A stretch of DNA of 32,000 nucleotides, taken from the NCBI GenBank assembly GCA_031316145.1, contig JALDQZ010000012.1, positions 1 to 32,000 of the forward strand. The letters are read 5' to 3'. This document shows, piece by piece, positions 7,138-31,920 of the stretch; the first letter of the stretch is position 1; each line of letters begins with the position of its first letter. Under the pieces are notes generated by a model that was not told where the DNA came from, did no database searches, and saw only the letters and a program-made list of their open reading frames with translations. The translations under genes were made by a program, and so were the position numbers. The stretch comes from Candidatus Brocadiaceae bacterium. Lineage in GTDB: Bacteria > Planctomycetota > Brocadiia > Brocadiales > Brocadiaceae.

Positions 7138-7143
7138 TTAGGA

Positions 7144-7263: not shown

Positions 7264-7310
7264 GATGCGCTTAACTAGAAAGGTAAAAATTTTTATAGGG
7301 AGAGAAAAAT

Positions 7311-7577: not shown

Positions 7578-7599
7578 ATTTAACGCATAGGAGGAATTT

Positions 7600-7713: not shown

Positions 7714-7782
7714 TTTCAATTTTCTTGGCGGTCTCTGTGGTTAATTTTTTGATAATGACTTTTGTTTTTTAAGGGGCACAAA

Positions 7783-9567: not shown

Positions 9568-9588
9568 TTTAAAAAATGCATATCTAAA

Positions 9589-9615
9589 AAGGCACAAAGA
9601 CAGCGGGAACAAAGG
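9589..9615. repeat. Left imperfect inverted repeat flanking the four-helix-bundle cassette
   Basis: aaggcaca (9589-9596) and ggaacaaagg (9606-9615) recur as reverse complements at 9966-9973/9989-9996 and 9977-9986. Confidence 0.55.
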
Positions 9616-9623
9616 AGCAAAGG

Positions 9624-9961: not shown

Positions 9962-9963
9962 AC

Positions 9964-9996
9964 TCTGTGCCTTCTGCCTTTGTTCCTCTGTGCCTT
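9964..9996. repeat. Right imperfect inverted repeat flanking the cassette (contains ctgtgcctt twice)
   Basis: tgtgcctt occurs at 9966-9973 and 9989-9996, and cctttgttcc at 9977-9986. These are reverse complements of the motifs at 9589-9615. Confidence 0.55.
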
Positions 9997-10074
9997 AATA
10001 GCTGCGATATTTCAAATTTTTCAACAAAGTTTATTGTTACTTTTTGAACTCCTTTCTTTATACAGATACATCTC

Positions 10075-16957: not shown

Positions 16958-18367
16958 ATGAAACAAAAAAAATTGTGGGGCGGAAGGTTTACAAAACAGA
17001 CGAAACCTTCGGTGGAGTCCTTTACCGAATCAATTTCATTTGATTGGAAACTTTTTCAATATGATATTGAAGGGAGTATTTCTCATGCGACCATGCTTGC
17101 TAAATGCAATCTTATTACGGACAGGGAAAAAAATGCGATTGTTAAAGGTTTAAAAAAAATTCTTGCTGAAATTCATGAAGAATGTTTTGAGTTTAAAAAA
17201 TCACTGGAAGACATTCATATGAATATAGAATCCTCTTTGATTGAGCGGATTGGTGACGCTGGCAAAAAGCTGCATACTGCACGAAGCAGAAATGATCAAA
17301 TAGCCCTTGATTTGCGATTATGGATACGTGACAATATAGAAATAATAGTAGCCCTTTTAATAGCCTTACAAAGTGGATTGGTAAGAAAGGGAAAAGAGTG
17401 TATAGACGTAATTATGCCCGGTTTTACCCATCTTCAACATGCTCAGCCAGTTCTTCTGTCTCATTATTTACTTGCATACGTAGAGATGTTGGAACGGGAC
17501 AAGGCGAGACTGCACGATTGTTCTGTCCGGCTGAACAGTTCACCTCTTGGAGCTTGTGCGCTTGCAGGGACAACACTTCCGACTGATCCGTTGTTTACCG
17601 CAAAATTACTTGGTTTTCATGGGGTTTGTCAAAACAGCATAGATGCTGTGAGTGACAGGGACTTTTGCCTGGAGTTCGTGTTTTGTCTTTCCCTGATAGC
17701 CATGCACCTGTCTCGCCTTTGTGAGGAATGGATTATCTGGTGTAATGATGATGTGAAATTCGTTGAGATCAGTGACGCATATTGCACTGGATCAAGTATC
17801 ATGCCGCAAAAAAAGAATCCTGATATACTTGAATTAATTCGTGGAAAGTGTGGTCGGGTATATGGAAACTTGACGACTTTACTTAGCTTATTTAAAGGGT
17901 TACCGTTAAGCTATAACCGGGATATGCAGGAAGATAAGGTCGCGTTATTTGACGCAACGGATACAGTACTAACTTCCTTGACAATTCTAACGGAACTTGT
18001 GTTGCATACAACATTTCAGGAAGAGCGAATGAGGGAGGCTTGTGAAAAGGGGTTTGTTGACGCTACCTCATTAGCTGAGTATCTGGTTAAAAAAGGGGTT
18101 CCTTTCCGTGTGGCCCATGAGATAGTAGGAAATATTGTTCGGGAATGCATAAAAATCCAATGTAAACTGGAAGACCTGTCGCCGGAGGATTTCAAAAAAT
18201 TTTCTTCTCATATAGAAAAAGATGTGTACAGAGTGCTTGGAATAAAAAACTGTATTAATCAGTATAGAAGTTACGGTTCTACTGCACCAAAGTTTGTTAA
18301 AAAACGTATTGTCTATTGGGGGAAAAAGTTACAAAAAGAAAAAGGATTGAAAAATCCTTCTGGTTGA
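16958..18367 (+). CDS. argH: Argininosuccinate lyase
   Basis: N-terminal KLWGGRFTK, fumarate-lyase signature GSSIMPQKKNPD, and typical length. Confidence 0.95.
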   Translation: MKQKKLWGGRFTKQTKPSVESFTESISFDWKLFQYDIEGSISHATMLAKCNLITDREKNAIVKGLKKILAEIHEECFEFKKSLEDIHMNIESSLIERIGDAGKKLHTARSRNDQIALDLRLWIRDNIEIIVALLIALQSGLVRKGKECIDVIMPGFTHLQHAQPVLLSHYLLAYVEMLERDKARLHDCSVRLNSSPLGACALAGTTLPTDPLFTAKLLGFHGVCQNSIDAVSDRDFCLEFVFCLSLIAMHLSRLCEEWIIWCNDDVKFVEISDAYCTGSSIMPQKKNPDILELIRGKCGRVYGNLTTLLSLFKGLPLSYNRDMQEDKVALFDATDTVLTSLTILTELVLHTTFQEERMREACEKGFVDATSLAEYLVKKGVPFRVAHEIVGNIVRECIKIQCKLEDLSPEDFKKFSSHIEKDVYRVLGIKNCINQYRSYGSTAPKFVKKRIVYWGKKLQKEKGLKNPSG

Positions 18368-18481
18368 GAAAGTGCTGAATGGGAGTTCGGGTGAAGAAAG
18401 AGCTGGTAAACGATTTCTGTTTTTAGCATGGTGATGTGGAATCGTACATTTTAGACAAAAAACTTCGTGGACAAATAAAAA

Positions 18482-19771
18482 ATGGATACGTTTGAGTATA
18501 GAAATAAAATGCTTTTTTGCGAGAAGGCACGAATAGATAAAATAATTTCAGAGGTAGGCTCGCCAGCCTATGTTTACAGTAAAAAAGCAATTTTAGCAAA
18601 TTACAATGAGTTAAAGACAGCATTTCAGGATTTTAATACCTTAATATGTTTTTCCGTAAAATCCAATTCGAATCTTTCCATTTGCAGGATTTTGGCAGAG
18701 GAAGAATCGGGGTTTGATGTTGTTTCCGGAGGAGAATTGTTTCGGGTCATGAGCGCCGGGGGTGATCCTTCAAAGGTGGTATTTGCAGGAATAGGGAAAA
18801 CGGGGGCCGAAATACGATATGCCCTGGAAAACGATATCTTTATGTTTAATGTGGAGTCTCTGGCAGAGGTCGAACACATTAACACTCTAGCGGCAGAAAT
18901 GAACAAAAGGCCGAATCTATCTTTGCGAATTAATCCGGACGTTGATGCAAAAACCCACGCGAAGACTACGACAGGGAAAAAGGAGAATAAATTCGGTATT
19001 GATTTTGATACCGCTGACAAAATTTTGAAAAATTCTGCTAAGTTTTCCGATGTTGATATATGTGGTTTGCATGTACATTTGGGTTCTCCTATTTATACAA
19101 CTGCCCCATATGTGGGAGCGCTTAAAAAGGTCCTGAAATTTATTCAGAAGCACAGGGATGCCGGCATAGACATTGAGTATTTGAATATTGGTGGAGGATA
19201 TTGCGTTTCTTATACGGGGGAAAAAGTCATTCGTCCAAAAGAGTATGTGGCAGATATGTTCCCATTTTTACAAGAGGTGCATTGTAATCTGATCCTGGAA
19301 CCAGGCCGGTTCATTGTCGGTAATGCCGGGATTTTAGTTACAAGTGTGTTGTACAGAAAAGAGACTCTGCATGGGAAAAAGTTCGTTATTTGTGATGCGG
19401 CAATGAATGATTTATTGCGCCCCTGTTTGTATGATGCTTTTCACAGGATATGGCCGGTAAATTCTGGTATCAAAATGCCGGATGCGGAAAATCCTGAAGA
19501 AACTACGGTAAGAAAAGGTATGGATCTGGTTGATATTGTCGGTCCTGTCTGTGAAAGCAGCGATGTTTTTGCAAAAAAGAGAAACTTGCCTCGAGTAAGG
19601 CAAGGGGATCTCTTGGCGATCTTTAGTGCGGGTGCCTATGGGTTCACGATGAGTTCCAATTACAATTCTCGTCCACGTCCTTGCGAAGTCTTGGTGGATG
19701 GAGACCGGTTTCAAGTAATCAGAAAACGGGAAACATATAAGGATTTAATTAAGGGAGAGGTTCTTTCTTAG
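18482..19771 (+). CDS. lysA: Diaminopimelate decarboxylase
   Basis: PLP-dependent Orn/DAP/Arg decarboxylase fold. FSVKSNSNLSICRILAEEESGFDVVSGGEL, EPGRFIVGNAG and CESSDVF are typical of LysA. Confidence 0.88.
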   Translation: MDTFEYRNKMLFCEKARIDKIISEVGSPAYVYSKKAILANYNELKTAFQDFNTLICFSVKSNSNLSICRILAEEESGFDVVSGGELFRVMSAGGDPSKVVFAGIGKTGAEIRYALENDIFMFNVESLAEVEHINTLAAEMNKRPNLSLRINPDVDAKTHAKTTTGKKENKFGIDFDTADKILKNSAKFSDVDICGLHVHLGSPIYTTAPYVGALKKVLKFIQKHRDAGIDIEYLNIGGGYCVSYTGEKVIRPKEYVADMFPFLQEVHCNLILEPGRFIVGNAGILVTSVLYRKETLHGKKFVICDAAMNDLLRPCLYDAFHRIWPVNSGIKMPDAENPEETTVRKGMDLVDIVGPVCESSDVFAKKRNLPRVRQGDLLAIFSAGAYGFTMSSNYNSRPRPCEVLVDGDRFQVIRKRETYKDLIKGEVLS

Positions 19772-19783
19772 TCTGGGAATGAA

Positions 19784-20422
19784 ATGGCAAAATATTATCC
19801 AATATATCTACACATTAGAGACAAGAAATGCGTGGTGGTAGGGGGCGGAAAGGTTGCATGGCGCAAGGTATGCAGTTTAAGAGAGGCAGGAGCAAGGGTA
19901 ACGGTCGTGGCTCCTGATATATGTGCTGAGCTGAGTCGGGAGGAAGGGGTTGAAATCATAAAACAGAAGTATGATGAATCATTTCTTAAAGAGGCGATGA
20001 TTGTCATCGCTTCAACAGATGATGAACAGGTGAATACAACCGTTTATTCTGATGCAATGAAAAGAGGCTTATTGGTCAATGTTGTTGACAGACCGGAATT
20101 TTGTTCTTTTATCGTTCCTTCCTCAATAGAACGGGGTGACCTTAGAATTAGTATTTCAACGGGAGGGGCGAGCCCTGCCCTGGCGAGGAATATACGCAAA
20201 TCTTTGGAAGGGCAGTTTGGGAAAGAATATTGCGAGTTTACAAGGCTTTTATCAGAGATGCGAAAAAAGGTTCTTGTAGAAGTACGGAATGAATCAATAA
20301 GACGAGATATTCTGCAGCGAATAGCAGGGTTGGATTTTCTGGAGGTTATAAAAAAAGATGGTCCCGACGTAGCACAACGAAGGATGTTAGATGTTATTTC
20401 TGAGAAATGTCCCAAAGAATAA
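19784..20422 (+). CDS. sirC: Precorrin-2 dehydrogenase / sirohydrochlorin ferrochelatase (CysG N-terminal / SirC-like)
   Basis: NAD-binding VVVGGGKVAWRKVCSLREAGARVTVVAP. Also ISISTGGASPALARNIRKSLE. Confidence 0.8.
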   Translation: MAKYYPIYLHIRDKKCVVVGGGKVAWRKVCSLREAGARVTVVAPDICAELSREEGVEIIKQKYDESFLKEAMIVIASTDDEQVNTTVYSDAMKRGLLVNVVDRPEFCSFIVPSSIERGDLRISISTGGASPALARNIRKSLEGQFGKEYCEFTRLLSEMRKKVLVEVRNESIRRDILQRIAGLDFLEVIKKDGPDVAQRRMLDVISEKCPKE

Positions 20423-20457
20423 ACCAGGTATAGTGGTATCCTTGTTTTCATTTTTGC

Positions 20458-20486
20458 TTGCAAGAATTTTTGTGAAGTGATACTAT
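20458..20486 (+). promoter_or_regulatory. Candidate sigma-70-type promoter (TTGCAA-17 bp-TACTAT) for the sulfur cluster
   Basis: Hexamers at 20458-20463 and 20481-20486, with the -10 hexamer ending 108 bp upstream of the ATG at 20595. Confidence 0.35.
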
Positions 20487-20594
20487 TAAAATGGATAGAA
20501 TAATGGGTGTTCATTTTTATGTATGTGCCTATTTTTTTAGTGGTTACTCACGATACGTCGTTAAGGAATGGTTCTAAATTATATTGGAGTATAA

Positions 20595-21485
20595 ATGGCT
20601 GAAAAGAGTGTAAAACAAAGAATAGATTTTGGGGAATTAAAATCCGGCGGTTTTATAAAGCAGACACAAAAAGACCTGTTTACCGTCCGGTTAAAAGTGC
20701 CTGGTGGGCGTATTACGCCAGAGAGAATGACAAAGATTGCTGAAGTTGCAAAAAAATATAGTCGGCTTGGGTATTGTCACCTGAGTTTCAGGCAGTCTGT
20801 TGAAATTATTGGTGTCCATATTGATGATTTTGATGCTGTTGTGAAGGAGCTTGCTGAGGTAGGGCAGAAAGTCGCTTCTTGTGGTCCCAGGGTAAGAGTG
20901 CCTACGGCATGCGGGGGATGTGAATACAATCCCAATGGAATTATGGATACACAATCTAAGGCGTTGGAGGTTGATGAGAAATTTTTTGGCACACCATGTC
21001 CTCACAAATTTAAGATAGGATTTTCCGGATGTCCCATTGATTGTACAAGAAGCAGAGAATCTGATTTGGGGTTTCAAGGTGTGGTGTATCCGGTATGGAC
21101 TGAGGATTTATGCAATGGTTGTACCCTGTGTGCTAAGGCATGTGCAGAGGGTGCGATAGTATCCGATACAGAAGGAAAACCTGTGTTTGACGAGTCGAAG
21201 TGTGTGTATTGCGGCGACTGCATCAGGGCATGCCCTACAGATGCATGGAGGGACAAAGTAAAAGGATGGCTGGTACGGGTAGGGGGAAAACATGGAAGAC
21301 ATCCGCGTGAAGCTGACCAGGTACTCAACTTTTTACCCGATGATAAAGTAAATGATTTTGTCGATGCAACGGTAAAGTGGTACAAGGAAAACGGGAAGCC
21401 AAAAGAGAGAATCGGCACCTGTATAGATCGCGTTGGTCTGGACAAATTTAAAAAAGAAGTTGTTGCTACATTAACAGACAATTGA
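20595..21485 (+). CDS. Small sulfite/nitrite reductase-like siroheme-[4Fe-4S] protein with inserted 2x[4Fe-4S] ferredoxin domain (Dsr-like protein)
   Basis: NiR/SiR ferredoxin-like half domain (VRLKVPGGRITPERM). Siroheme-cluster Cys motifs TACGGCEYNPNG and GFSGCPIDC. Ferredoxin motifs CNGCTLCAKAC and CVYCGDCIRACP. Confidence 0.65.
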   Translation: MAEKSVKQRIDFGELKSGGFIKQTQKDLFTVRLKVPGGRITPERMTKIAEVAKKYSRLGYCHLSFRQSVEIIGVHIDDFDAVVKELAEVGQKVASCGPRVRVPTACGGCEYNPNGIMDTQSKALEVDEKFFGTPCPHKFKIGFSGCPIDCTRSRESDLGFQGVVYPVWTEDLCNGCTLCAKACAEGAIVSDTEGKPVFDESKCVYCGDCIRACPTDAWRDKVKGWLVRVGGKHGRHPREADQVLNFLPDDKVNDFVDATVKWYKENGKPKERIGTCIDRVGLDKFKKEVVATLTDN

Positions 21486-21497
21486 TTGGGGAATCAG

Positions 21498-21917
21498 GTG
21501 AGGGATAAAAAAAAATTTGTTATATTTGCCCATAGTGGGACCTATGATAAGCTCTATCAAATCATAACGCTGGCTATTACAGCTGCCTCATCCGGAAGAG
21601 AAACACATATTTTCCTTTTCTTTTGGGCCTTGAAAAAGTTTGTAAACGAAGAATTTGACGTTACAAGGCTTTCTTTTGAATTTGGTGAAGAAGGTGAATG
21701 CCTGGCCAAGCATATGCAGAAGCTCAATCCTGTATCTCTCAAAGAAATATTTCAAGAGGTGAGAGGTTTGGGGAATTTAAAAGTTTATGCCTGTACAGCT
21801 GCAGTAAAACTTATGGGTTTGGATGAAACCGTTGTAAAATCAAAAGTGGATGATATTCTTGGTTTGACAACCCTGTTGGAAATAGCAGAGGGGGCGGAAA
21901 CTCAGTTGTTTATATGA
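21498..21917 (+). CDS. DsrE/DsrF-like sulfur-relay family protein
   Basis: KKFVIFAHSGTYDKLYQ...VYACTAAVKLMGL with a conserved Cys. I prefer the GTG at 21498 (gggg 6 nt upstream). The track ORF starts at TTG 21486. Confidence 0.6.
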   Translation: MRDKKKFVIFAHSGTYDKLYQIITLAITAASSGRETHIFLFFWALKKFVNEEFDVTRLSFEFGEEGECLAKHMQKLNPVSLKEIFQEVRGLGNLKVYACTAAVKLMGLDETVVKSKVDDILGLTTLLEIAEGAETQLFI

Positions 21918-21935
21918 GAACTGAGGGTTGATACT

Positions 21936-22883
21936 TTGACAAACGTTGCAATGAAAAATAGAGCACGTCTAACGAAGGATGCCTTTAGGGGTTCAGTTTT
22001 GCATACGGTAGGGAATACCCCGCTCATCAGAATACGCAGGCTTACAAAGGGGGTGGGGAATAAGGGCGTAAACGTCTATGCAAAGGCAGAATGGTTTAAT
22101 CCGGGAGGGTCTATAAAGGACCGTGCGGCCTTACGCATTATTGAAGATGCTGAAAAGGCAGGTGGATTAACTCGCGGGAAAACTATTATTGACTCAACAT
22201 CGGGAAACACGGGCATTGCTTATGCCATGATTGGTGCGGTAAAAGGATATGACATTACTTTGGTGATGCCTTTGAATGTCAGTGAGGAACGCAAAAGGAT
22301 TGTACGTGCTTTTGGAGCGAAAGTCATCTTTTCAGATCCGATGCTGGGGTCAGACGGTGCAATGGCGGAAGCGAAGCGGATGGTAAAAGAAAATCCATCG
22401 AAGTATTTTTATGCCGATCAGTATAATAATCCTGCGAATTGGATGGCTCATTATACCACTACGGGTGTTGAAATATGGAAACAAACGGCAGGAAAAGTAA
22501 CACATTTTATTGCATGCCTTGGTACGAGTGGCACTTTTATGGGTACGGGGAGGCGTCTGAAGGATTATAATTCAGACATACAGCTAATATCTGTTGAGCC
22601 TTCTACTCCAATGCATGGATTGGAAGGGATGAAGCATATGGCTTCATCAGTGGTTCCTGGTATTTATGATGGAGAGTATGCGGATAGAAAGATGACCGTG
22701 CAGACGGAAGATGCATATGCGATTGTAAAAAGACTTGCGGTAGAGGAAGGTTTTTTTGTCGGTTATTCTTCGGGTGCCGCGCTTGCGGCTTCCTTGAAGC
22801 TTGCAAATGAAATTGAGCAGGGATTGATTGTTACGGTTTTCCCCGATAGAGGTGACCGGTATCTCAGTACCCGTTTTTGGTAA
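21936..22883 (+). CDS. cysM: PLP-dependent cysteine synthase (CysM/CysK family)
   Basis: GNTPLIRI, NPGGSIKDRAA (PLP Lys) and SSGNTGIAYA. A gaggg RBS lies 8 nt upstream of the TTG at 21936. Confidence 0.85.
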   Translation: MTNVAMKNRARLTKDAFRGSVLHTVGNTPLIRIRRLTKGVGNKGVNVYAKAEWFNPGGSIKDRAALRIIEDAEKAGGLTRGKTIIDSTSGNTGIAYAMIGAVKGYDITLVMPLNVSEERKRIVRAFGAKVIFSDPMLGSDGAMAEAKRMVKENPSKYFYADQYNNPANWMAHYTTTGVEIWKQTAGKVTHFIACLGTSGTFMGTGRRLKDYNSDIQLISVEPSTPMHGLEGMKHMASSVVPGIYDGEYADRKMTVQTEDAYAIVKRLAVEEGFFVGYSSGAALAASLKLANEIEQGLIVTVFPDRGDRYLSTRFW

Positions 22884-22919
22884 TGAACCGGATTGTAGAA
22901 CATTTGAGGTGTTTGTGCT

Positions 22920-23339
22920 GTGTTATCTATTGGAAAAGATGTGATTCGAGAGATAAAAAAAGAGGTAAAAAAAAATTATCCGTTCGAATGTTGTGGGTTG
23001 CTCATCGGAACAAACACCTCGGAAAAGCGTGTAGTTGAAGTGCGGCCGGTACAAAACAAGAATACAAAAAGAACGCATGATCGCTATGAAATAGACGGTA
23101 GAACATTTGATAAGGTAGATAAGGAAGCGAAAAAGAAGGGCCTTCAAATAATAGGCATTTATCACTCGCATCCAGATCATCCGGCTATCCCTTCTGAATT
23201 TGATACAGAGAACGCCTGGAGTGTATATTCTTATCTCATTGCTTCCAGAGAAAAAGGGAAGAAAATTGATATAAGGTCATGGGTATTCGATGAAGTAGAG
23301 AGAAAGTTTGAAGAAGAGGAAATACGTTATATAGAGTAA
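22920..23339 (+). CDS. JAMM/MPN+ zinc metalloprotease (Mec+-like)
   Basis: ECCGLLIG (catalytic Glu) and an exact JAMM motif HSHPDHPAIPSEFD (HxHx7SxxD). GTG start with a gaggtg RBS. Confidence 0.85.
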   Translation: MLSIGKDVIREIKKEVKKNYPFECCGLLIGTNTSEKRVVEVRPVQNKNTKRTHDRYEIDGRTFDKVDKEAKKKGLQIIGIYHSHPDHPAIPSEFDTENAWSVYSYLIASREKGKKIDIRSWVFDEVERKFEEEEIRYIE

Positions 23340-23442
23340 CGTTCGGTAATATCTCGGTATTGACAAAGAAGAAGATTGTTTGTGAATCTATGCGAAACAG
23401 GCTCTATGTATGATCATAAAAACTGAACAGAGGAGTTGTCAC

Positions 23443-23688
23443 GTGGCTGAGGAAGAAAAAATTTGTCCGGATGATAAAATTGATTTGCGGGGAGTACTTT
23501 GTCCTATTAATTTTGTAAAAACGAAATTAAAATTAGAGATGCTGGATTCAGGGCAGGTTTTAGAAGTGATTTTAGATGATGGTGAGCCGATGAGAAGTGT
23601 CCCGAAAAGTGTCAAAGAGGAAGGGCATAAAATCATAAAAGTCGAGAATATGGGAACTGCTTACCGCATACTGATAAAAAAAACATAA
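23443..23688 (+). CDS. TusA/SirA-like sulfurtransferase
   Basis: DLRGVLCPINFVKTKLKLEML (CPxP-type active-site Cys, here CPIN) and VILDDGEPMRSVPKSVKEEGH. The GTG at 23443 has a gaggag RBS 7 nt upstream. The alternative ATG at 23410 lacks one. Confidence 0.7.
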   Translation: MAEEEKICPDDKIDLRGVLCPINFVKTKLKLEMLDSGQVLEVILDDGEPMRSVPKSVKEEGHKIIKVENMGTAYRILIKKT

Positions 23689-23714: not shown

Positions 23715-23743
23715 TTGACTTTTTTCTTCGTAAATTATACTAT
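23715..23743 (+). promoter_or_regulatory. Candidate sigma-70-type promoter (TTGACT-17 bp-TACTAT) for the Rieske/cyt b operon
   Basis: TTGACT at 23715-23720 and TACTAT at 23738-23743 (alternatively TATACT with a 15-bp spacer). It would give a leader of about 230 nt that contains the tandem repeat. Confidence 0.3.
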
Positions 23744-23860
23744 TCGACCGTTTCGAGAAAACTATAGGTGTCTGATGATTGTTTTCTTTGAAAATTTTTT
23801 AAAGAAAAGAGCGTAATGCATTGTGCTCATTTGAGTTGGTGGGTTTTATAATTCAAGGAT

Positions 23861-23928
23861 GATGTATTGCTTTTATACCATTTTCACATACATTGATGTA
23901 TTGCTTTTATACCATTTTCACATACATT
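23861..23928. repeat. Perfect 34-bp tandem duplication (2 copies)
   Basis: gatgtattgcttttataccattttcacatacatt occurs at 23861-23894 and again at 23895-23928. Each unit has inverted ends (atgtat / atacat). It lies 54 bp upstream of the Rieske ATG. Confidence 0.95.
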
Positions 23929-23981
23929 ATAGAATTTAAGGAAATTGAAAATATAGAAGTTTTTTCAGGCAGGAGGTTATT

Positions 23982-24503
23982 ATGAAAACAAAAGGCAAGA
24001 AGCATACATATCATGCATCAGAAAAACAGGGGGGGATTTGGTTTACTATTTCCCGGAGAAATTTTTTCAGTTTAGCAGGTTGGGCGCTCTTTTTCGCGAC
24101 AATAGGGGCTTATCTGGGAGAGCTTGCAGGATATAAAGGGTTTTTTTATCCTAAGGTCCTTTTTGAGCCTTCACCACGATTTACGATAGGAGAGCCAGGC
24201 TCTTTTCCGGAAAATTCCGTGACCACGTTAAAGCCGAGAAAGATATTTGTTGTGCGAGATGGCAACAGTTTTAAGGCCATTTCAGTTGTATGTCAGCACT
24301 TAGGATGTGCGGTAGAGTTTTCTAAAGAGAAAAACATATTCGAGTGTCCTTGTCATGGCAGTAAATATTATCGAAATGGCGTAAACTTTGCCGGACCAGC
24401 GCCGAGGCCTCTTGACCACTTTGAAGTTCTTTTAAATGACAACGGTAAGCTGGTAGTAGATACAAGCGTAAAAGTGCCTTTAGAAACAGAGTTAGTAGTT
24501 TAG
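23982..24503 (+). CDS. Rieske [2Fe-2S] protein with Tat-type signal anchor
   Basis: Twin-arginine motif ISRRNFFSLAG followed by a TM helix. Rieske boxes CQHLGC and CPCHGS. Strong aggagg RBS. Confidence 0.92.
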   Translation: MKTKGKKHTYHASEKQGGIWFTISRRNFFSLAGWALFFATIGAYLGELAGYKGFFYPKVLFEPSPRFTIGEPGSFPENSVTTLKPRKIFVVRDGNSFKAISVVCQHLGCAVEFSKEKNIFECPCHGSKYYRNGVNFAGPAPRPLDHFEVLLNDNGKLVVDTSVKVPLETELVV

Positions 24504-24551
24504 TTTTGAATTTTACATCCTTATACTCTTTAATCATGAAGGTTTGAATTT

Positions 24552-26312
24552 ATGACCCAAGCAACAAAATCACAAAAAGGGACGAGGGTGCTTCTCGATT
24601 TAAATTGGTTGCAAGAGAATATCCGCTGTCAACATCGCTGTCCGGCCCATATGGATGTGCCGGGATATATACGTTTAATAAGCCAGGGCAAATACCAGGA
24701 ATCACACATATTGATGAGGGAAACAAATCCTTTTCCAGCGGTGTGTGGATATGTTTGTCCGCATCCGTGCGAATCTAAATGTAAAAGGGGTGATTTTGAC
24801 AGGCCCGTTGCTATTGATGCACTAAAACGTTTTGTAACTGATTATATATTTAAACATAAAATCAAAGCGCCGCTTCCTCAGATAAAACAAAGGAAGGAAA
24901 GGGTTGCCGTAATTGGCGCAGGCCCAGCGGGTTTGACAGCAGCTAATGATCTTGCGGGTATGGGTTACAACGTTACTGTATTTGAAAAAGACCCTCAGGT
25001 TGGTGGTATGATGATGTGGGCAATTCCGTCCTATAGGTTGCCGCGTGAGCAGATAATGTTTGATGTGAGTCAAATTGTTGCGCGAGGTGTTGAGATAAAG
25101 ACCAACTCCCCTATCGGAACTCCCGGAAAGACAATTTCCGGATTATTGAGAGATGGGTATAAAGCTGTATTTATAGCTGTGGGTGCTCAGAATGGGAAAC
25201 GGTTGGAGATTCCAGGGGAGGAGGATACAGAGGGTGTTATGGATTGCCTGGAATTTTTGAGAAATGTAAATGGCGGCGATCTGAGAAGTCCGGGTAAAAA
25301 GGTAGCGGTAATAGGCGGTGGAAATTCTGCTATTGATGCAGCGAGGACGGCGCAGCGGCTGTCGGATGAAGTTTATATTGTGTATCGAAGAACGAGAGAA
25401 GAAATGCCGGCGCTTCCGTGGGAGATTGAGGAGGCGGAGCATGAAGGAGTGAGATTTCATTATCTTGCTGCGCCAGTGAAAATTATAACTGAGAATGGGA
25501 AGGCGAAAGCCTTGGAGTGTATTAAAATGAGATTGGGCAAACCTGACAGCAGCGGAAGAAGACGCCCTGAACCAATCCCGAAATCAGAGTTTACGATTGA
25601 AGCCGACTGTATAATTTCTGCGATCAGTCAAGAGGCCGATCTGCGTTTTCTTGGAGAGGATCACGGATTAGAGGTGACGAAGTGGGGCACGCTTAAGGTC
25701 GATAAAACTCTCCATACGAACAAAAAGGGCATATTTGCCGGTGGTGATGTGAATTTGGGGCCAAGCACTATTATAGAGTGTATAGCAGAAGGGCATACTG
25801 CGGCAAAATCAATTGACCGGTATATACGGGGGGAAGAGCTTGAAGAACCGAAACAAAAGGTTTGGGTGACGCTTTTGGATGCAGACATTGATGAGCGTGA
25901 AGAAAATTATGATTCTGTGCCGCGGCAGCAGATGGCACATTTGCCGACACAGGATAGGCAAGGTACCTTTGATCTGGTAGAGCTTGGTCTTATAGAGGAA
26001 CAGGCAAGAGCTGAGGCTCTTCGTTGTCTGAAGTGTGATCTCAGTATAAATGTTGAAACCAATGAGTGTGTTCTGTGTGGTAGGTGTAGTATGGTCTGCC
26101 CCGTTGGCGCTTTGAAACAGGTGGATGTTTCTGATATGAGTAAGGAGCACCGGCCTTTCTTGAGTGAAGATGGTATTGTCATAAAATACACTGACAAATG
26201 TATTCGTTGTGGTAATTGTAAAGATTGTCCCGTAAGTGTTGTTTCAATGAAACGAGTGCTTTGGAAGCCAAATGAGGAAATCAATGAGCCTTTAGAAGAA
26301 AGGGGGGGGTAG
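24552..26312 (+). CDS. GltD/NfnB-like NAD(P)-dependent FAD/FeS oxidoreductase subunit with C-terminal 2x[4Fe-4S] ferredoxin domain
   Basis: N-terminal Cys clusters (CQHRCPAH, CGYVCPHPCESKC). Two Rossmann motifs (VAVIGAGPAGLTAA, VAVIGGGNSAIDAA). C-terminal CVLCGRCSMVCP and CIRCGNCKDCP. Confidence 0.85.
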   Translation: MTQATKSQKGTRVLLDLNWLQENIRCQHRCPAHMDVPGYIRLISQGKYQESHILMRETNPFPAVCGYVCPHPCESKCKRGDFDRPVAIDALKRFVTDYIFKHKIKAPLPQIKQRKERVAVIGAGPAGLTAANDLAGMGYNVTVFEKDPQVGGMMMWAIPSYRLPREQIMFDVSQIVARGVEIKTNSPIGTPGKTISGLLRDGYKAVFIAVGAQNGKRLEIPGEEDTEGVMDCLEFLRNVNGGDLRSPGKKVAVIGGGNSAIDAARTAQRLSDEVYIVYRRTREEMPALPWEIEEAEHEGVRFHYLAAPVKIITENGKAKALECIKMRLGKPDSSGRRRPEPIPKSEFTIEADCIISAISQEADLRFLGEDHGLEVTKWGTLKVDKTLHTNKKGIFAGGDVNLGPSTIIECIAEGHTAAKSIDRYIRGEELEEPKQKVWVTLLDADIDEREENYDSVPRQQMAHLPTQDRQGTFDLVELGLIEEQARAEALRCLKCDLSINVETNECVLCGRCSMVCPVGALKQVDVSDMSKEHRPFLSEDGIVIKYTDKCIRCGNCKDCPVSVVSMKRVLWKPNEEINEPLEERGG

Positions 26313-26376
26313 GAAGTATTCTGTTATGAAGGGGAAAAAATGGTAATAAACGTAATACGGAGGAAGGGGCGTTTAA

Positions 26377-27147
26377 ATGAAATTAATTGAGGAGTTAAAA
26401 AGGAAAATCACAGACAATGAAATTTGGAGGTCTGTATTTCGCCACGGTTACGCAGATACCCCGAGAAACCGAGTTCTTCAGATTATCAGCAATGTATGGT
26501 TGCACTTGCATCCTGCAAAGGTTCGAGAGCACGGTACGCAAATCAGATTTACTTGGTGCATGGGAGGTATTACTTTTTTCGTATTCCTATTCGAGACGAT
26601 AACAGGTGTGCTGTTAATGTTTTATTATACGCCTGATGTGAATAGGGCTTATGCGGATATTGTGGACCTGATGTATGTTGTGCCTTTTGGCAGGTTTTTA
26701 AGAAACTCTCACAGATGGGGTGCGCACGCTATGGTAATTACGGTGAGTATTCATATGCTTCGAGTGTTTCTGACGGGTTCTTATAAGCCTCCAAGGCAGT
26801 TTAATTGGGTAGTTGGGGTAGTACTGTTGGTTCTTACGTTGTTGTTGAGTTTTACGGGTTATTTGTTGCCATGGGATCAGCTTGGATATTGGGCTATTAC
26901 CGTTGGTACTAATATGGCTCGTGCAACACCGCTTCTCGGTCATGAGGGTCCGTTTGCATATATCTTAGGTATGGAAGCGAATAATGATGTGCGTTTTGCA
27001 TTGCTGGGAGGCACATTGATCGAGGCTCCAGCTTTGTTGAGGGCTTATGTGTGGCATTGCATTGGAATACCACTGGTAGCATCGGCGTTGATGATGGTTC
27101 ATTTCTGGAGGGTAAGAAAAGATGGAGGGATCTCAGGTCCTCTGTAG
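26377..27147 (+). CDS. Cytochrome b, b6-type N-terminal half
   Basis: Helix [16 protein letters not shown] (His pair i, i+14). Helix [17 protein letters not shown] (i, i+15, as in b6). [13 protein letters not shown]. The C-terminus [10 protein letters not shown] matches the b6 C-terminus. WCMGGIT aligns to b6 YCLGGIT. Confidence 0.92.
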
Positions 27148-27201
27148 TGTTCAATTAAATTTTTCGTTAGATTATTGGAGAAATTTCTGAGGAGTGGTTC
27201 C

Positions 27202-27924
27202 ATGGCGGTAAGTGAAGGGAAAAGAGAGTTAGTCGAATTTAAAGACGACAAGGTTTTTACATGGCCCACCCTGGTTGCTAAGGAGTTCCTGGCTGCTATT
27301 TTTGTGACGGTAGGGCTGCTTGTCTATTCATATTATGTAGATGCTCCTCTTAGGGAGTTATCAAACCCTGGGCAAGCTGAAAATCCAGCAAAGGCTCCTT
27401 GGTATTTCTTGGGATTACAAGAGGCTTTAGTATATTTTGATCCATGGTATGCAGGCGTAGTTCTTCCCAGTATCATCATACTGGGATTAATTGTCATTCC
27501 GTATATAGACAATAATCCGAAAGGGAATGGCTATTTTACTTTTAAAGAGAGAAAGTTTGCAGTATCAGTTTTTATGTTTGGTTACATACTTTGGTATGTT
27601 TTGATTTATATTGGTACTGCTCTAAGGGGGCCGTTTTGGGCGTTTTTCTGGCCTTGGGAAGAATGGACGCATGATTTCCCCACCCCTGCTCCTTTACATA
27701 ATCTACCATTGCCTTTGGGGATAGTGCTGGTGTTCGGATTTTATTTCTTCGGATTGATTATACCTGCGCTGGTAAAAAGAGACTTCTTTTTGAGGATTGG
27801 GGTAATTCGTTACCTCATTACGATGGGTCTTCTTTTAACCATGATTGGCACCATAATTAAAATGGTTTTTCGGTTGGCATTTAGTGTTAAGTATATTATT
27901 GCCACCCCTTGGATTAACATATAA
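27202..27924 (+). CDS. Cytochrome b C-terminal half / subunit IV-like protein (extended)
   Basis: The Qo-region KAPWYFLGLQEAL aligns to b6f subunit IV PEWYFFPVFQIL. Multiple TM helices. The ATG at 27202 has a gaggag RBS, whereas the track ORF starts at TTG 27175. Confidence 0.85.
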   Translation: MAVSEGKRELVEFKDDKVFTWPTLVAKEFLAAIFVTVGLLVYSYYVDAPLRELSNPGQAENPAKAPWYFLGLQEALVYFDPWYAGVVLPSIIILGLIVIPYIDNNPKGNGYFTFKERKFAVSVFMFGYILWYVLIYIGTALRGPFWAFFWPWEEWTHDFPTPAPLHNLPLPLGIVLVFGFYFFGLIIPALVKRDFFLRIGVIRYLITMGLLLTMIGTIIKMVFRLAFSVKYIIATPWINI

Positions 27925-27971
27925 TTATTTTCAAGATACCTTAAATCGAGTATTTCCGGGATAGGTGATTT

Positions 27972-29057
27972 ATGACCGTACAAAGACTGATTTTTTTGTT
28001 ATTAAGCGGCTTGTTTTTTATCTCCACATTGTTATGGTTTCATCAGGAGTTCAATCCTGAGTGGAGGGAATATCAAAAGGAATATTTCGAAGAACAGGCC
28101 GTAAAAGTAGAGAAAGAGCTAAGTTCTGCAGATACTATACTGGAACAGGAGGTGCTAACGAGGCGTCTGGCATCGCTGCGAAGACCTGTATATGAAATTA
28201 AACAGATTCTTTTACAAGGCGAATATAGTTGGAAGAAACAGCAGAATGGGGATAAGGTTGATCGCTGCATGACTTGCCATATGGATGAAGAAAAATTGAC
28301 CAAATCTCATAATACTAAGGTTTTTCCTTTTGACCTTTATGGATGTACTGTTTGCCATGGAGGTAATGGTAGGGCTCTTTCCGTAGAGCATGCTCATGAG
28401 GGTATGTATTCGGGGAGAAGAGAAATGCTGCAGAGAGTGGTGGCCGCGGAGCCAATGTTCGAATTTTGGGAAGAATTGGCGACGCTGACTCCGGAAGAAA
28501 GCGATCCAAACCAGCGCATTGAGATGGGTGATTTCAGGGGGTACTGTATTACCGGTGACAGGATGAATTATGTTGGTAGTAAAAAATGTCTCAAATGCCA
28601 CACAGGTTTGACGTCTCCACATGTAGAACGCTGGCAAAGGATCAAGTTCAAGACTTTCGAGCGCGTAAAAGAAGCACCTGATTACATTGCTGGTAACGAG
28701 AAGTATAAAAAGCTTTGTTGGGAGTGCCATACCACGGGATATAATGAGGAAACAGGAACATATTCCGAGGAAGGAGTAACGTGCGAGGCTTGCCACGGAC
28801 CGGGAGAGGTGTTTAGTTATTTTATGGATGTGGGAAAGGCTCCTGAGGGACAAAAAATTGCGAAAGTGGGAACCTTCGGCACCCCGTACAATATTTGCGG
28901 ACCGTGTCATCATACCCGAGGACATGAGATGCGACTCAGGTTTTTCCAGGAGCAAGGTGCTGATGAAGAATGGTTTTTCCCGCGGCACACAGAACCATAT
29001 AAGACGATATCGGGAGAAACTGATTCCGTGGATAGTTCACTGCCAAAGATTCAGTAG
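27972..29057 (+). CDS. Membrane-anchored hexaheme cytochrome c
   Basis: N-terminal TM helix. Six CxxCH motifs: CMTCH, CTVCH, CLKCH, CWECH, CEACH, CGPCH. Confidence 0.9.
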   Translation: MTVQRLIFLLLSGLFFISTLLWFHQEFNPEWREYQKEYFEEQAVKVEKELSSADTILEQEVLTRRLASLRRPVYEIKQILLQGEYSWKKQQNGDKVDRCMTCHMDEEKLTKSHNTKVFPFDLYGCTVCHGGNGRALSVEHAHEGMYSGRREMLQRVVAAEPMFEFWEELATLTPEESDPNQRIEMGDFRGYCITGDRMNYVGSKKCLKCHTGLTSPHVERWQRIKFKTFERVKEAPDYIAGNEKYKKLCWECHTTGYNEETGTYSEEGVTCEACHGPGEVFSYFMDVGKAPEGQKIAKVGTFGTPYNICGPCHHTRGHEMRLRFFQEQGADEEWFFPRHTEPYKTISGETDSVDSSLPKIQ

Positions 29058-29144
29058 ATTTGAAATTGCACGTTCGTTTGAAAAAAGGAAATAAAGTTGT
29101 GTTTATTAATACCATTTGCAGGCTTTAAGGTGAGGAGGCGTAAA

Positions 29145-30890
29145 ATGAAGTTTTTAAAATCGGGCGCGATTTTTTTCGCGGTCCTTATGATGCTGAGTGC
29201 GTATGTCGGAAGCACGCAGGCACAGTCAATGGACGAGCTGAAAGAAATGCAGAAGAAGGCCATGAATTATTATGACGAATTATATCCTAATACTCCGTTG
29301 CCACTTAATGACTGGTTTGTTAAAAATGTCGGTTTGGAGAAAGGCGCAGGTCCCTGGCAGGATCTATATAAACCGGTTCCATTACAAATGTATTGGTTTC
29401 CTATAAGACACTATGTGAAGCCAGAAGGCACATATTATGATCAGTTGCTCGAAAAATACAAACCCAGTGACTGTGTTGAGTGTCATAAAGAGGTTACCCC
29501 TGGATTTGTGCATGATTGGGAAGATTCTACCCATGCTCATCCGAGAAAGAATCCTCGGGTCGCAGAGAAGACCCAGAAAATTGAAAAATTGATTGGAAGG
29601 GATTTGAAAGAGGTAACCTGCAGCGACTGTCATGGGAAAGACCACAAAGAGCTTCGTATGCCGACTCCAGATGTGTGCGGCGAATGTCACCCTCAGCAGG
29701 TAACGGAATTTATGAGCGAGGCTGAACGTGGTAGACCGAATCACATCGACGGTTTAGCGGCGAATGTCATTCCCATGTGGTATCCGGAGATGTTCAGGAG
29801 GGGTTATCCTGCTGGTCAGTTCGGGTGTGATATGTGTCACGCGACAGATAGATGTAATATCTGTCATACAAGACACAAATTTGCCGCTGCGGAAGGAAGG
29901 AGACCGGAAGCCTGTATGAGTTGCCATATGGGTTTTGACCATCCGGATGCGGAAACATATGGTGAATCAAAAATGGGTATGATTTATCATATGGAAGGTG
30001 AACACTGGGATTGGGAAAAACCGTTGGCGGAGGTTGTACCCGGCAAGGATTACAGGACGCCTACCTGTCAATTCTGCCATATGGACCAAGGTGATGGCAC
30101 TTTTGCCCATAATCCTGTGATAAAAGGCGTATGGAGGATGGGCACCGTACCTCCTAAAGGAGTTGATTACAAGTCTTCTATAAAAGATTATCCTCATGGT
30201 ATCAATATACCTCCTATGAATTACAAGTTAGACATATACTCTCCTGAAAATAAGAAACGATCGGAACAGTGGGTAGCGGTGTGTAGCAAATGCCATAGCC
30301 CTAGATTTGCAAGGTTATATCGTGAGAATTTGGATGATTTCATGTTTGAGATGTGGAAGCATCAGGATAGGGCGCAGTTAATTTTAGATGATATCGTAGC
30401 AAACGATGAATTTGAAGTGCCTATTAAAGAAAGAGATATCTTTCCTCTCGGTGACATACTTGCCGATGCGCTTGGACCTGGGTTGTTAGGTGAAGCCGTT
30501 TATAACGCTTTTAAGGACTCACATGGAAAGGTGCCTGTTGTAGGACCGATTCTTGGATTGTACGGTCTGTTTATGACTGGAGATCATAATCCGTCAGAGA
30601 TAGAACTTACCTATGCGGACATGTGGTTTGGTGACAAGGCGCACGCCTATAAGGGCGTAGCTCACGGGCAACAGGATATTGCATGGTGGTATGGCGCTTC
30701 ACAGGTTTATCAGAAGATCAATATTCTGGAAAGCCAAGCCGTAGCGCTGAAAACGCAGAAGCAAGTAAGAGAGTTTCTGGATTCTAGGAAAAGGAAAAGT
30801 CATGCTGGCATAATTGGCGCTATTATAGGTGTTGTAGCAGTCGCGATGTTTGGTGCTGCCGTAATGAAAAAAAGACTGGATAAGAAGTAG
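29145..30890 (+). CDS. hao: Octaheme hydroxylamine oxidoreductase-like (HAO family) protein with signal peptide and C-terminal TM anchor
   Basis: Eight CxxCH motifs: CVECH, CSDCH, CGECH, CDMCH, CNICH, CMSCH, CQFCH, CSKCH. Sec signal MKFLKSGAIFFAVLMMLSAYVGSTQA. C-terminal helix AGIIGAIIGVVAVAMFGAAVM followed by KKRLDKK. The ATG at 29145 has a gaggagg RBS, whereas the track ORF starts at TTG 29097. Confidence 0.9.
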   Translation: MKFLKSGAIFFAVLMMLSAYVGSTQAQSMDELKEMQKKAMNYYDELYPNTPLPLNDWFVKNVGLEKGAGPWQDLYKPVPLQMYWFPIRHYVKPEGTYYDQLLEKYKPSDCVECHKEVTPGFVHDWEDSTHAHPRKNPRVAEKTQKIEKLIGRDLKEVTCSDCHGKDHKELRMPTPDVCGECHPQQVTEFMSEAERGRPNHIDGLAANVIPMWYPEMFRRGYPAGQFGCDMCHATDRCNICHTRHKFAAAEGRRPEACMSCHMGFDHPDAETYGESKMGMIYHMEGEHWDWEKPLAEVVPGKDYRTPTCQFCHMDQGDGTFAHNPVIKGVWRMGTVPPKGVDYKSSIKDYPHGINIPPMNYKLDIYSPENKKRSEQWVAVCSKCHSPRFARLYRENLDDFMFEMWKHQDRAQLILDDIVANDEFEVPIKERDIFPLGDILADALGPGLLGEAVYNAFKDSHGKVPVVGPILGLYGLFMTGDHNPSEIELTYADMWFGDKAHAYKGVAHGQQDIAWWYGASQVYQKINILESQAVALKTQKQVREFLDSRKRKSHAGIIGAIIGVVAVAMFGAAVMKKRLDKK

Positions 30891-30922
30891 GAACAAAAAT
30901 TTTCGGTAATGGTGAAAAAAAC

Positions 30923-30956
30923 AAAAAAAGGCATCTTGAAAAGGATGCCTTTTTTT
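30923..30956 (+). terminator. Rho-independent terminator, A/T-flanked (potentially bidirectional)
   Basis: A7 tract, stem ggcatctt / aaggatgcc with a GAAA loop (30930-30949), then T7 (30950-30956). It starts 33 nt after the HAO-like stop. Confidence 0.85.
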
Positions 30957-30999
30957 GTTTCTAAAGAATCCGGTTTATTGACAGGGGATGTATTGAGGC

Positions 31000-31920
31000 A
31001 TGTTAAATAACATAAAAAAGTACGTGCTTAGCTCTCAACAGTTCGGTGCGTTTTCCTATCCATTTAAGAATGAGAGTATGGCTTACAAAAACTCTAAAGT
31101 GATAATTATGGGCGTTCCTTTTGATGGCACTGCTACGTATCAAACAGGGGCGAAGATGGGTCCTGGTGCAATTTTAAACGCATCTATTAATATAGAGCCA
31201 CATGACGTAGATTTGGGAGATGTTTACAAGGTTGGAATATTCACTATCGGTACCCTCAATATTGAGGAAATACATGCTGATCCTGAAAAAGTTATTGATG
31301 CTGTATACCATTCCAGCAAAAGAATTGTAAATGATGACAAATTTTTAGTTATTTTAGGAGGTGAGCATTCTATTTCTCAGGGATCAATCAGGTCTTATAA
31401 AGAAAAATATAAACGTTTGTCTGTTCTTCAACTTGATGCACATTTGGATTTATTGAATGAGTTTGGAGGGAGCAGGTATAGTCATGCAAGCATAGCAAGG
31501 AGGGTTGTCGAAGATTTAAAATGCAAGGTTACTAGTTTTGGAATACGGGTAGTTTCTAAAGAGGAAAAGGGTTTTTTGAGAAAAAACAAAGGGAATCTTT
31601 CCGTATTTTTTGCGAGAGATATATATGATAACAATAATTGGCATAAAGACGCCATTAATACTTTAGAAGATTATGTGTATATTACCCTGGATGTTGATGG
31701 ATTAGATACTTCCATCATGCCGGCAACAGGAACACCTGTCCCTGGAGGGTTGGGATGGTATCGCACACTTGATTTTTTGCAAAAAGTATATAAGGAACGA
31801 AAAGTAGTCGGATTAGATATCGTAGAATTAAAACCCAATGCAGGAAACGAAGCCCCTAATTTTCTCGCAGCAAACCTTGTTTATAAAAACATAGGTTTTT
31901 ATAAAAAATATACCTTATGA
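31000..31920 (+). CDS. speB: Agmatinase / ureohydrolase family protein
   Basis: Arginase-fold Mn-binding motifs GGEHSIS, LQLDAHLDL and ITLDVDGLD. Confidence 0.8.
   Translation: MLNNIKKYVLSSQQFGAFSYPFKNESMAYKNSKVIIMGVPFDGTATYQTGAKMGPGAILNASINIEPHDVDLGDVYKVGIFTIGTLNIEEIHADPEKVIDAVYHSSKRIVNDDKFLVILGGEHSISQGSIRSYKEKYKRLSVLQLDAHLDLLNEFGGSRYSHASIARRVVEDLKCKVTSFGIRVVSKEEKGFLRKNKGNLSVFFARDIYDNNNWHKDAINTLEDYVYITLDVDGLDTSIMPATGTPVPGGLGWYRTLDFLQKVYKERKVVGLDIVELKPNAGNEAPNFLAANLVYKNIGFYKKYTL

Follow-up and report, generated by a model that had tools for sequence, protein, structure and literature searches.

The Brocadiaceae ortholog of the Kuenenia Kuste4569-4574 Rieske/cytochrome b complex and its proposed bifurcation of menaquinol electrons

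In this study, we analyzed a stretch of 32,000 nucleotides (hereafter the window) from a Candidatus Brocadiaceae bacterium (assembly GCA_031316145.1, contig JALDQZ010000012.1, positions 1 to 32,000 of the forward strand). Positions 23982-30956 had been described, from the letters of the DNA and without database searches, as an operon of six genes for a Rieske/cytochrome b complex with an NAD(P) module, a hexaheme cytochrome c and an octaheme HAO-like protein (the preliminary description). The six-gene operon for a membrane respiratory complex was confirmed as real. It almost certainly encodes the Brocadiaceae counterpart, an ortholog, of the Rieske/cytochrome b (R/b) complex kuste4569-4574 of Kuenenia stuttgartiensis. 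The complex is already known: the ortholog has been described, modeled and partly characterized, and the copy in the window adds no new architecture. The novelty implied by the preliminary description was overstated, since this architecture has been published from the time of the Kuenenia genome and the Kartal review onward.

We consider it most probable (about 0.6) that the complex works as a forward bifurcating enzyme, in which menaquinol oxidation would be split between a nitrite-reducing octaheme branch and the reduction of NAD(P)+; the direction, the substrate and the nucleotide are what we infer. Two open questions in anammox metabolism are the source of NAD(P)H for CO2 fixation and the enzyme supplying NO to hydrazine synthase, and the complex is the leading candidate for both. 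What is added here is the strict conservation of the complex and of all proposed cofactor-binding residues across anammox families, which supports the published structural model. Side points that may concern specialists are a probable NADP+ preference, a lineage with NADH-type motifs and loss of the HAO anchor in that lineage, a tyrosine near the catalytic heme, and a duplication in the operon leader.

Operon structure and orthology

All six genes are located on the forward strand. Gene 1 (23982-24503) encodes a Rieske [2Fe-2S] subunit of 173 aa with a Pfam Rieske match and is followed by gene 2 (24552-26312), whose product of 586 aa is a GltD/NfnB-like FAD/NAD(P)/Fe-S subunit recognized by NCBIfam NF009410 and by Pfam. 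A b6-type cytochrome b of 256 aa is encoded by gene 3 (26377-27147; Cytochrome_B match, closest to b6), and an extended subunit IV-like protein (SUIV) of 240 aa with weak PetD, subunit IV and ExtQ matches by gene 4 (27202-27924). The two heme c subunits come last: a hexaheme cytochrome c of 361 aa with six CxxCH motifs and a c554-like stretch (gene 5, 27972-29057), and an HAO-like octaheme cytochrome c of 581 aa with the PF13447 domain (gene 6, 29145-30890). The same-strand arrangement and the identities given to these genes in the preliminary description were borne out by the open reading frames (ORFs), by Pfam and NCBIfam domains, by six plus eight CxxCH motifs, by the SRRNFF motif of the Rieske protein and by hydropathy.

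Gaps between the ORFs as listed are short (27-64 nt). The start of gene 4 is more likely ATG 27202, which has AGGAG 7 nt upstream and a Met kept in all orthologs, than TTG 27175, from which the listed ORF begins; for gene 6, ATG 29145, with AGGAGG 6 nt upstream and a normal signal peptide, is likewise a more probable start than TTG 29097, the start of the listed 597-aa ORF. Ribosome-binding sites had been noted for the operon at large; clear Shine-Dalgarno sites were found at genes 1, 3, 4 and 6, but those at genes 2 and 5 are weak. Likewise, the strong terminator placed at 30923-30956 is real, but slightly longer. The intrinsic terminator occupies 30919-30959 on the forward strand and consists of a 19-bp hairpin that has a GC core and is preceded by an A-tract and followed by a T-tract. 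Its folding energy is -24.7 kcal/mol (z = -6.38), and 0/200 shuffles were equally stable. A simple pattern scan missed this terminator, and its promoter and terminator counts were not above those of shuffles. The terminator was judged by folding energy, and the promoter by cross-genome conservation, instead of by pattern-scan counts.

Related loci were gathered with the hexaheme subunit as the query and one genome per species. This gave seven loci, from four Planctomycetota/Brocadiaceae metagenome-assembled genomes (MAGs), a Kuenenia sp., a Scalinduaceae MAG and one further MAG. The six genes occur in identical order at 7/7 of these loci, with 63-93% identity, so the operon is not a chance grouping. 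The window proteins themselves correspond to the records MDR4510003-07 and MEZ6232477-81 of an uncultured Candidatus Brocadiaceae MAG, and not to Kuenenia.

The match to kuste4569-4574 given in the preliminary description proved correct. The Rieske protein's soluble domain shares 84% identity with PDB 9rk4, its best solved relative (E = 1.7e-60), and matches 9rk3 with E = 2.7e-21. By the PDB molecule names and the two Rieske crystal structures of Hauser et al., 9rk4 corresponds to Kuste4569 and 9rk3 to Kustd1480. The Kuenenia locus (L005) has all six genes at 70-93% identity to the window proteins, and gene 2 is 78% identical to the K. stuttgartiensis 'putative NAD(P) oxidoreductase, FAD-containing subunit'. 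Kuste4569-4574, named R/b-2 or R/b-3 depending on the paper, matches the window in its six genes, in their order and, nearly, in their lengths, and also has a five-helix subunit IV and S127, Y129, H43, R247 and R511 at identical numbering. The window differs in coming from a MAG of a different genus-level lineage of Brocadiaceae and in its own 34-nt leader duplication; nothing architectural differs.

The second Kuenenia complex, Kustd1480-1485, shares the b6-like core with APWY and WCMGG motifs and a GltD-like NAD(P) subunit with YRR. However, its genes are ordered Rieske, cytochrome b, GltD-like, SUIV, it lacks an HAO-like subunit, and its proteins are 35-68% identical to those of the window; the Rieske protein of this type has Phe in place of Tyr129 (bioRxiv 10.1101/2025.06.25.661457). 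In a Kustd1480-type paralog operon (L011), identity to the window was 35% for the Rieske protein, 43% for the GltD-like subunit, 68% for cytochrome b and 51% for SUIV. Because this paralogous operon is far more distant while the Kuste4569 Rieske protein is close, the window operon is assigned to the Kuste4569-4574 group. The L011 operon was also considered as a case of the NAD(P) module outside anammox bacteria and was rejected: with 81% identity between its Rieske protein and Kustd1480 (9rk3), it is the known anammox paralog.

The search for the NAD(P) module beyond anammox bacteria sampled three contexts only. Two non-anammox APWY clusters, from Binatia and Thermodesulfovibrionales MAGs (L010 and L012), were the only ones examined; they carry genes for Rieske, cytochrome b, SUIV and large multiheme c proteins, with neither an NAD(P) subunit nor an HAO. 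Non-anammox anchored HAO homologs (P0047, P0041) adjoin heme-copper oxidase genes and not Rieske/cytochrome b genes. Within this small sample, the joining of NAD(P) and HAO modules to a Rieske/cytochrome b core is specific to anammox bacteria, as in the literature.

Proposed electron path through the core and the NAD(P) subunit

The proposed mechanism starts from a b6f-like core of the APWY clade, which would carry a GltD/NfnB-like FAD/Fe-S NAD(P) oxidoreductase on the cytoplasmic side and the hexaheme and HAO-like octaheme cytochromes c on the anammoxosome side. Oxidation of menaquinol at Qo would send its two electrons along separate paths. The high-potential path would lead from the Rieske cluster through the hexaheme c to the octaheme HAO-like subunit, where nitrite would most likely be reduced to NO. 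The low-potential path would run through heme bP, heme bN and heme c_n, possibly through an extra heme b ligated by His43, and then through four Fe-S clusters and FAD to NAD(P)+. In such a scheme the uphill reduction of NAD(P)+ would draw its energy from the downhill nitrite branch, with proton release on the positive side. The mechanism is the hypothesis published by Kartal, as it is summarized in Hauser et al. (bioRxiv 10.1101/2025.06.25.661457); the quinol-driven, bifurcation-like mechanism of the preliminary description amounts to the same hypothesis and had been suitably hedged.

Several results from Kuenenia, among them Rieske potentials above +300 mV, support this mechanism. All subunits comigrate in Kuenenia membranes, according to the account of a complexome study in bioRxiv 10.1101/2025.06.25.661457. 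Co-purification of the proteins, the failure of which had been named in the preliminary description as counter-evidence, has thus in effect been seen for the ortholog, in the form of comigration. The potential of the Kuste4569 Rieske protein was measured at +303 mV, and AlphaFold3 models trace a heme/Fe-S path to FAD in the Kuenenia complex (bioRxiv 10.1101/2025.06.25.661457). Kuste4574 is highly expressed and has been proposed to be a membrane-bound nitrite reductase (bioRxiv 10.1101/2025.03.25.645162). The statement that direct biochemical proof was lacking therefore holds for the catalytic activity of the octaheme subunit, which is undemonstrated, but overlooks the comigration and the Rieske potential of the ortholog.

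The residues needed for the core of this path are present in the window. The Rieske protein has an uncleaved Tat-type signal anchor at its N-terminus (SRRNFF), cluster ligands C104, H106, C122 and H125, the disulfide pair C109/C124 and the high-potential pair S127/Y129; all eight residues are invariant in 8/8 operons. The heme b ligands of cytochrome b, H112/H126 and H227/H242, show b6 spacing, and C61 in the WCMGG motif (the heme c_n/c_i site) aligns with b6 Cys35. A 26-residue N-terminal extension bears H43, which, like R247, has the same numbering as in Kuenenia. Each of these cytochrome b residues was invariant in 8/8 operons as well. In the Kuenenia model, H43 and R247 are predicted to hold the extra heme b at the dimer interface (bioRxiv 10.1101/2025.06.25.661457). 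Solved relatives of gene 3 are cytochromes b6 (E ~1e-41) ahead of bc1 cytochrome b (~1e-25).

For gene 4, the direct evidence is weak (Pfam E = 0.005, with weak PetD, TIGR01156 and ExtQ matches). Searched against PDB, the profile of its orthologs matches only b6f subunit IV, with E ~0.01 and spanning all three core helices. The homolog family is very large, and the assignment to subunit IV is firmer because members at ~50% identity carry Pfam PF00032. Hydropathy indicates five hydrophobic segments, and an AlphaFold2 (AF2) model predicts five long helices at low confidence (pLDDT 62); fold searches with this model were uninformative. The Qo motif APWY, at SUIV residues 74-77 (numbered from TTG 27175), aligns with PEWY and is invariant in 8/8 operons. 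The split cytochrome b, four heme b histidines, the WCMGG form of the CxGG heme c_i motif and the APWY Qo motif together place the core in the APWY clade. This clade was defined in 2014 by Kao and Hunte (PMC4122944), who give WCMGG as its heme c_i motif.

With cytochrome b6f and the b6c-type complexes of Firmicutes and heliobacteria, the window complex has in common a split cytochrome b, b6 His spacing, the Cys for a covalent heme c_n and a Tat-anchored Rieske protein. In contrast to b6f, the motif is APWY instead of PEWY/PDWY, SUIV has two extra helices, cytochrome b has the H43 extension, and NAD(P) and multiheme modules are present. In the strict sense the complex is not a b6f, as the operon has no cytochrome f-like gene and its intergenic gaps (27-87 nt) are too short to hold PetG/L/M/N ORFs. 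Non-anammox APWY clusters (e.g., from Geobacter, Binatia and Thermodesulfovibrionales) have a core of the same family, with an SUIV-like protein at ~50% identity and an invariant APWY.

The product of gene 2 combines Fer4_20 (4.8e-22), Pyr_redox_2 (9.5e-37) and a C-terminal Fer4 domain in Pfam and scores 521.4 bits against NCBIfam NF009410 (cut-off 516). It has an N-terminal two-cluster domain, the Rossmann motifs GAGPAG and GGGNSA, YRR at residues 278-280, and a C-terminal ferredoxin domain of the 2x[4Fe-4S] type that contains R511. The best solved relatives are 9bov, 9n5u ('NfnA'), 8oh5_C and the NfnB-type chains 4ylf_B and 5jca_L; NfnB/StnC-type subunits of bifurcating transhydrogenases rank first and GltD next. 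The N-terminal two-cluster domain and the FAD and NADPH sites, including YRR, are common to the NfnB/StnC/GltD family, the FAD subunits of electron-bifurcating transhydrogenases and of glutamate synthase; the window subunit differs in its extra C-terminal ferredoxin-like domain, for which docking on cytochrome b has been proposed. The operon and its flanks contain no gene for an NfnA or GltB partner. The GltD/NfnB-like module is a borrowed one, and the enzyme is neither Nfn nor GOGAT.

The second Rossmann beta-strand is followed by YRR, and the same holds for the aligned NADPH-using GltD/NfnB relatives. In dinucleotide-binding folds and in the GltD/NfnB family, YRR at this place is an indicator of NADP(H). 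To judge from this motif, the nucleotide used in this lineage is probably NADP+. Across 120 homolog clusters of gene 2, R511 and sixteen Fe-S cysteines do not vary; in the eight operons compared, these cysteines are invariant too and have the same numbering as in Kuenenia. R511 is found at the same numbering in Kuenenia, is invariant in 8/8 operons, and is proposed in the Kuenenia model as a residue by which the NAD(P) subunit would dock on cytochrome b (bioRxiv 10.1101/2025.06.25.661457).

The path of cofactors is intact and invariant in the Rieske ligands and S127/Y129, the four heme b histidines, C61, H43, R247, R511 and the sixteen Fe-S cysteines. The topology also agrees with the mechanism: hydropathy shows neither a signal peptide nor a transmembrane segment in the NAD(P) subunit, and a signal or an anchor in each of the heme c subunits.

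Among the 120 closest homolog clusters of gene 2, the site at window 25383-25391 reads YRR in 95 and CLE in 25, the latter with an insertion of 21-26 residues just before it. The CLE type includes Scalindua rubra, Scalindua arabica and loci L006 and L007 (P0171 and P0175 were noted), and YRR in Scalindua sediminis and japonica. CLE with the insertion is the pattern that would be expected for a preference for NADH. At L006 (11571-13076) and L007 (6813-9020 and 9668-11191), both of the CLE type, the HAO-like protein has no C-terminal membrane helix; L007 has the hexaheme gene in two tandem copies, and L006 has ~490 nt extra between the hexaheme and HAO genes. This remodeling in a Scalindua sublineage (an NADH-type motif with an insertion, an unanchored HAO and, at one locus, a duplicated hexaheme gene) might reflect a divergence in the function of the complex between anammox lineages.

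The core residues just described could also serve a conventional b6f-like Q cycle, in which quinol would be oxidized at Qo and the low-potential electron would reduce quinone at the heme c_n site. The multiheme subunits would then merely replace cytochrome f, and the NAD(P) subunit would act as an auxiliary input or in redox balancing, much as ferredoxin-NADP reductase feeds b6f during cyclic flow. Every b6f core cofactor ligand is conserved, the heme c_n cysteine included, and non-anammox APWY clusters work without an NAD(P) module. The Kuenenia models show heme c_n with a Glu ligand and a His nearby, at an accessibility slightly below that in b6f (bioRxiv 10.1101/2025.06.25.661457). Nevertheless, the NAD(P) subunit lies inside the operon in every genome examined, with its Fe-S cysteines and R511 invariant, and the second anammox paralog independently retains such a subunit. 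The Rieske potential is also above that expected for a canonical menaquinol Q cycle. We regard a conventional Q cycle as decidedly unlikely.

Heme c subunits and the direction of electron flow

Exactly six CxxCH motifs are present in the product of gene 5 and eight in that of gene 6, and these counts are conserved in the orthologs (in 8/8 for the hexaheme protein). The hexaheme protein has an N-terminal transmembrane segment at residues 6-24 and weak similarity to c554 and other multiheme proteins. The octaheme protein matches PF13447 (Multi-haem_cyto, HAO family) at 6.4e-50 and has a signal peptide and a C-terminal transmembrane helix at 556-574. Its best solved relative is 6h5l (Kustc0458), with E = 6.6e-175 and 51% identity over ~495 residues. 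Kustc0458 (HAOr) reduces nitrite to NO, lacks the Tyr-heme cross-link, and also reduces NO and hydroxylamine in vitro. HAOr (Kustc0458/Kustc0457) and the window protein are alike in their eight hemes and a Trp-rich segment at the cross-link site; HAOr, however, is soluble and pairs with a diheme protein, whereas the window protein is anchored in the membrane and linked in an operon to the Rieske/cytochrome b core.

The cross-link site bears on the direction of catalysis. The octaheme protein has WWYG at residues 514-517 in the 581-aa numbering (window 30684-30695), so that Tyr516 equals Tyr532 of the 597-aa ORF. WWYG was found in all membrane-anchored HAO orthologs linked to Rieske/cytochrome b, and WWWG in proteins of the HAOr/Kustc0458 type and the multicopper-HAO type. 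A profile alignment to three Nitrosomonas HAO (NeHAO) chains placed Y467 on the first Trp (W514) and G470 on the Gly. A MAFFT alignment gave the same placement for TYTxG of the homolog P0065, its cross-link Tyr falling on the first Trp of WWYG and the next Gly being matched. For the multicopper HAO of Brocadia pituitae (BpMHAO), a preprint of 2026 places the Trp W782 at the Tyr467 position and gives His499 as the heme 4 ligand; the spacing from His499 to W782 (283 residues) lands on the first Trp in five homologs of BpMHAO. The position of the canonical Nitrosomonas Tyr467 is thus probably a Trp (W514) in the octaheme subunit, with a Tyr at +2. Since the canonical cross-link position is probably occupied by Trp, the subunit is probably reductive; the probable lack of the canonical Tyr-heme cross-link is the reason for assigning it the role of a reductase in the mechanism. 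A weak phmmer domain and a gapped profile alignment of Kustc1061 put the cross-link Tyr on Tyr516 instead. The oxidative reading that would follow from the phmmer pairing of Tyr532 with Tyr467 was not adopted, as the family alignments, the profile search and the numbering ruler favor Trp.

A number of points weigh against the forward bifurcating mechanism with nitrite as its acceptor. No activity is known for the complex or for Kuste4574 (bioRxiv 10.1101/2025.03.25.645162). In vitro, HAOr acts on NO and hydroxylamine in addition to nitrite, so the octaheme subunit may have a substrate other than nitrite. The Qo motif is APWY, and this clade has been linked to reverse operation by Kao and Hunte (PMC4122944). 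Heme c_n and the nearby His are retained and the site looks accessible to quinone in the Kuenenia models (bioRxiv 10.1101/2025.06.25.661457), which makes a conventional Qn reaction possible. The placements of the cross-link by different alignments disagree, the ruler being itself an AlphaFold3 superposition in the BpMHAO preprint, and a conserved Tyr stands two residues past the favored position.

Some of these points concern the octaheme subunit alone. The same bifurcating architecture could end in a subunit that is not a nitrite-to-NO reductase but would convert NO to hydroxylamine or hydroxylamine to ammonium, or would serve mainly as a 24-heme electron hub to soluble partners such as hydrazine synthase. 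The three in vitro activities of HAOr are only slow, and the R/b-linked clade departs from it in its triad (WWY vs WWW) and in having no diheme partner gene; the membrane anchor, moreover, is lost in some lineages. On the other hand, the subunit shares 51% identity with the nitrite-reducing Kustc0458 and keeps the heme motifs and a conserved Asp-His pair, and nitrite reduction to NO is the most favorable high-potential sink in the published energetic scheme (bioRxiv 10.1101/2025.06.25.661457). A product or role other than nitrite-derived NO is therefore considered unlikely.

Other points concern the direction of the whole complex. Operating in reverse, as a confurcating enzyme, it would let high-potential electrons from heme c and electrons from NAD(P)H meet at Qo to reduce menaquinone. 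The complex would then be the entry to the quinone pool, and not the exit, for electrons borne by cytochrome c, e.g., those derived from hydrazine. Membership of the core in the APWY/WCMGG clade and the conserved Tyr (WWYG) near the cross-link position in the anchored clade could be read this way. However, reverse operation is itself hypothetical, no APWY complex having been characterized (PMC4122944), and the +303 mV of the ortholog Rieske cluster suits forward bifurcation. Hauser et al. (bioRxiv 10.1101/2025.06.25.661457) argue that quinone reduction driven by NAD(P)H would be wasteful in this case, as Kuenenia expresses dedicated NADH dehydrogenases. The octaheme subunit is also most like a reductive HAO that is unable to oxidize hydroxylamine or hydrazine. 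We judge reverse operation to be very unlikely. The same low standing is given jointly to two departures from the textbook scheme, to which the APWY Qo motif and the clade-specific Tyr at +2 may point: that the octaheme subunit forms a non-canonical Tyr-heme link with a chemistry distinct from that of HAOr, or that the complex is a confurcating menaquinone reductase taking electrons from cytochrome c and NAD(P)H.

C-terminally anchored HAO homologs at 47-49% identity to the window octaheme protein were also observed outside anammox bacteria, at L008 (5009-11713) and L009 (3200-9736), one of them in a Candidatus Magnetominusculus MAG. They adjoin genes for a diheme cytochrome c, a COX1/COX2-like heme-copper oxidase, SCO1 and UbiA, and a cytochrome b-ferredoxin-FlpD fusion is encoded nearby. 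These clusters may represent a different membrane-bound N-oxide module.

Transcription signals and neighboring genes

A sigma-70-like sequence on the forward strand at 23715-23743 (TTGACT, 17 nt, TACTAT), found by pattern scan and conservation, lies ~240 nt upstream of gene 1. Its TTGACT box and the TA-rich box downstream of it are invariant or nearly so ahead of the operon in five related loci, Kuenenia included, which makes it a probable operon promoter. Between the promoter and the Rieske start, the 5' leader contains a perfect tandem duplication of 34 nt (23860-23928; 2.0 copies, 100% match), which overlaps a second promoter-like site (TTTATA, 18 nt, TAGAAT; 23906-23935). None of the five related loci has the duplication, which is therefore peculiar to this genome and may represent a recent event, an artefact of the assembly or a change in regulation.

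The segment immediately upstream of the operon (19784-23688) contains genes of the sulfur-assimilation type, in order for siroheme synthase-like, small NIR_SIR/4Fe-4S sulfite/nitrite reductase-like (296 aa), DsrE-like and pyridoxal phosphate (PLP) cysteine synthase-like proteins, a JAB/MPN peptidase and TusA. The CysK-like, JAB/MPN and TusA genes are syntenic with the operon in 5/5 Brocadiaceae loci. This points to a thiocarboxylate-carrier cysteine pathway. On the other side, an arginase-family (agmatinase-like) gene at 31000-31920 stands right after the terminator, a position kept in the Brocadiaceae loci where the contig extends that far (3/5). Genes for argininosuccinate lyase and an Orn/DAP/Arg decarboxylase are located further upstream of the operon, at 16958-19771.

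Rfam and tRNA scans of the window gave zero matches. A histidine kinase fragment and a sigma-54-dependent response regulator are encoded at the start of the window (38-2472). In the region 4612-11331, beta-ketoacyl synthase genes (4612-5841, 5842-7137 and 10075-11331) flank a gene for a B12-binding radical SAM protein (7762-9567); such ketoacyl synthase/radical SAM clusters have been proposed to act in ladderane lipid synthesis in anammox bacteria. The cluster is followed by a gene for a 7TM-receptor histidine kinase (11331-13901).

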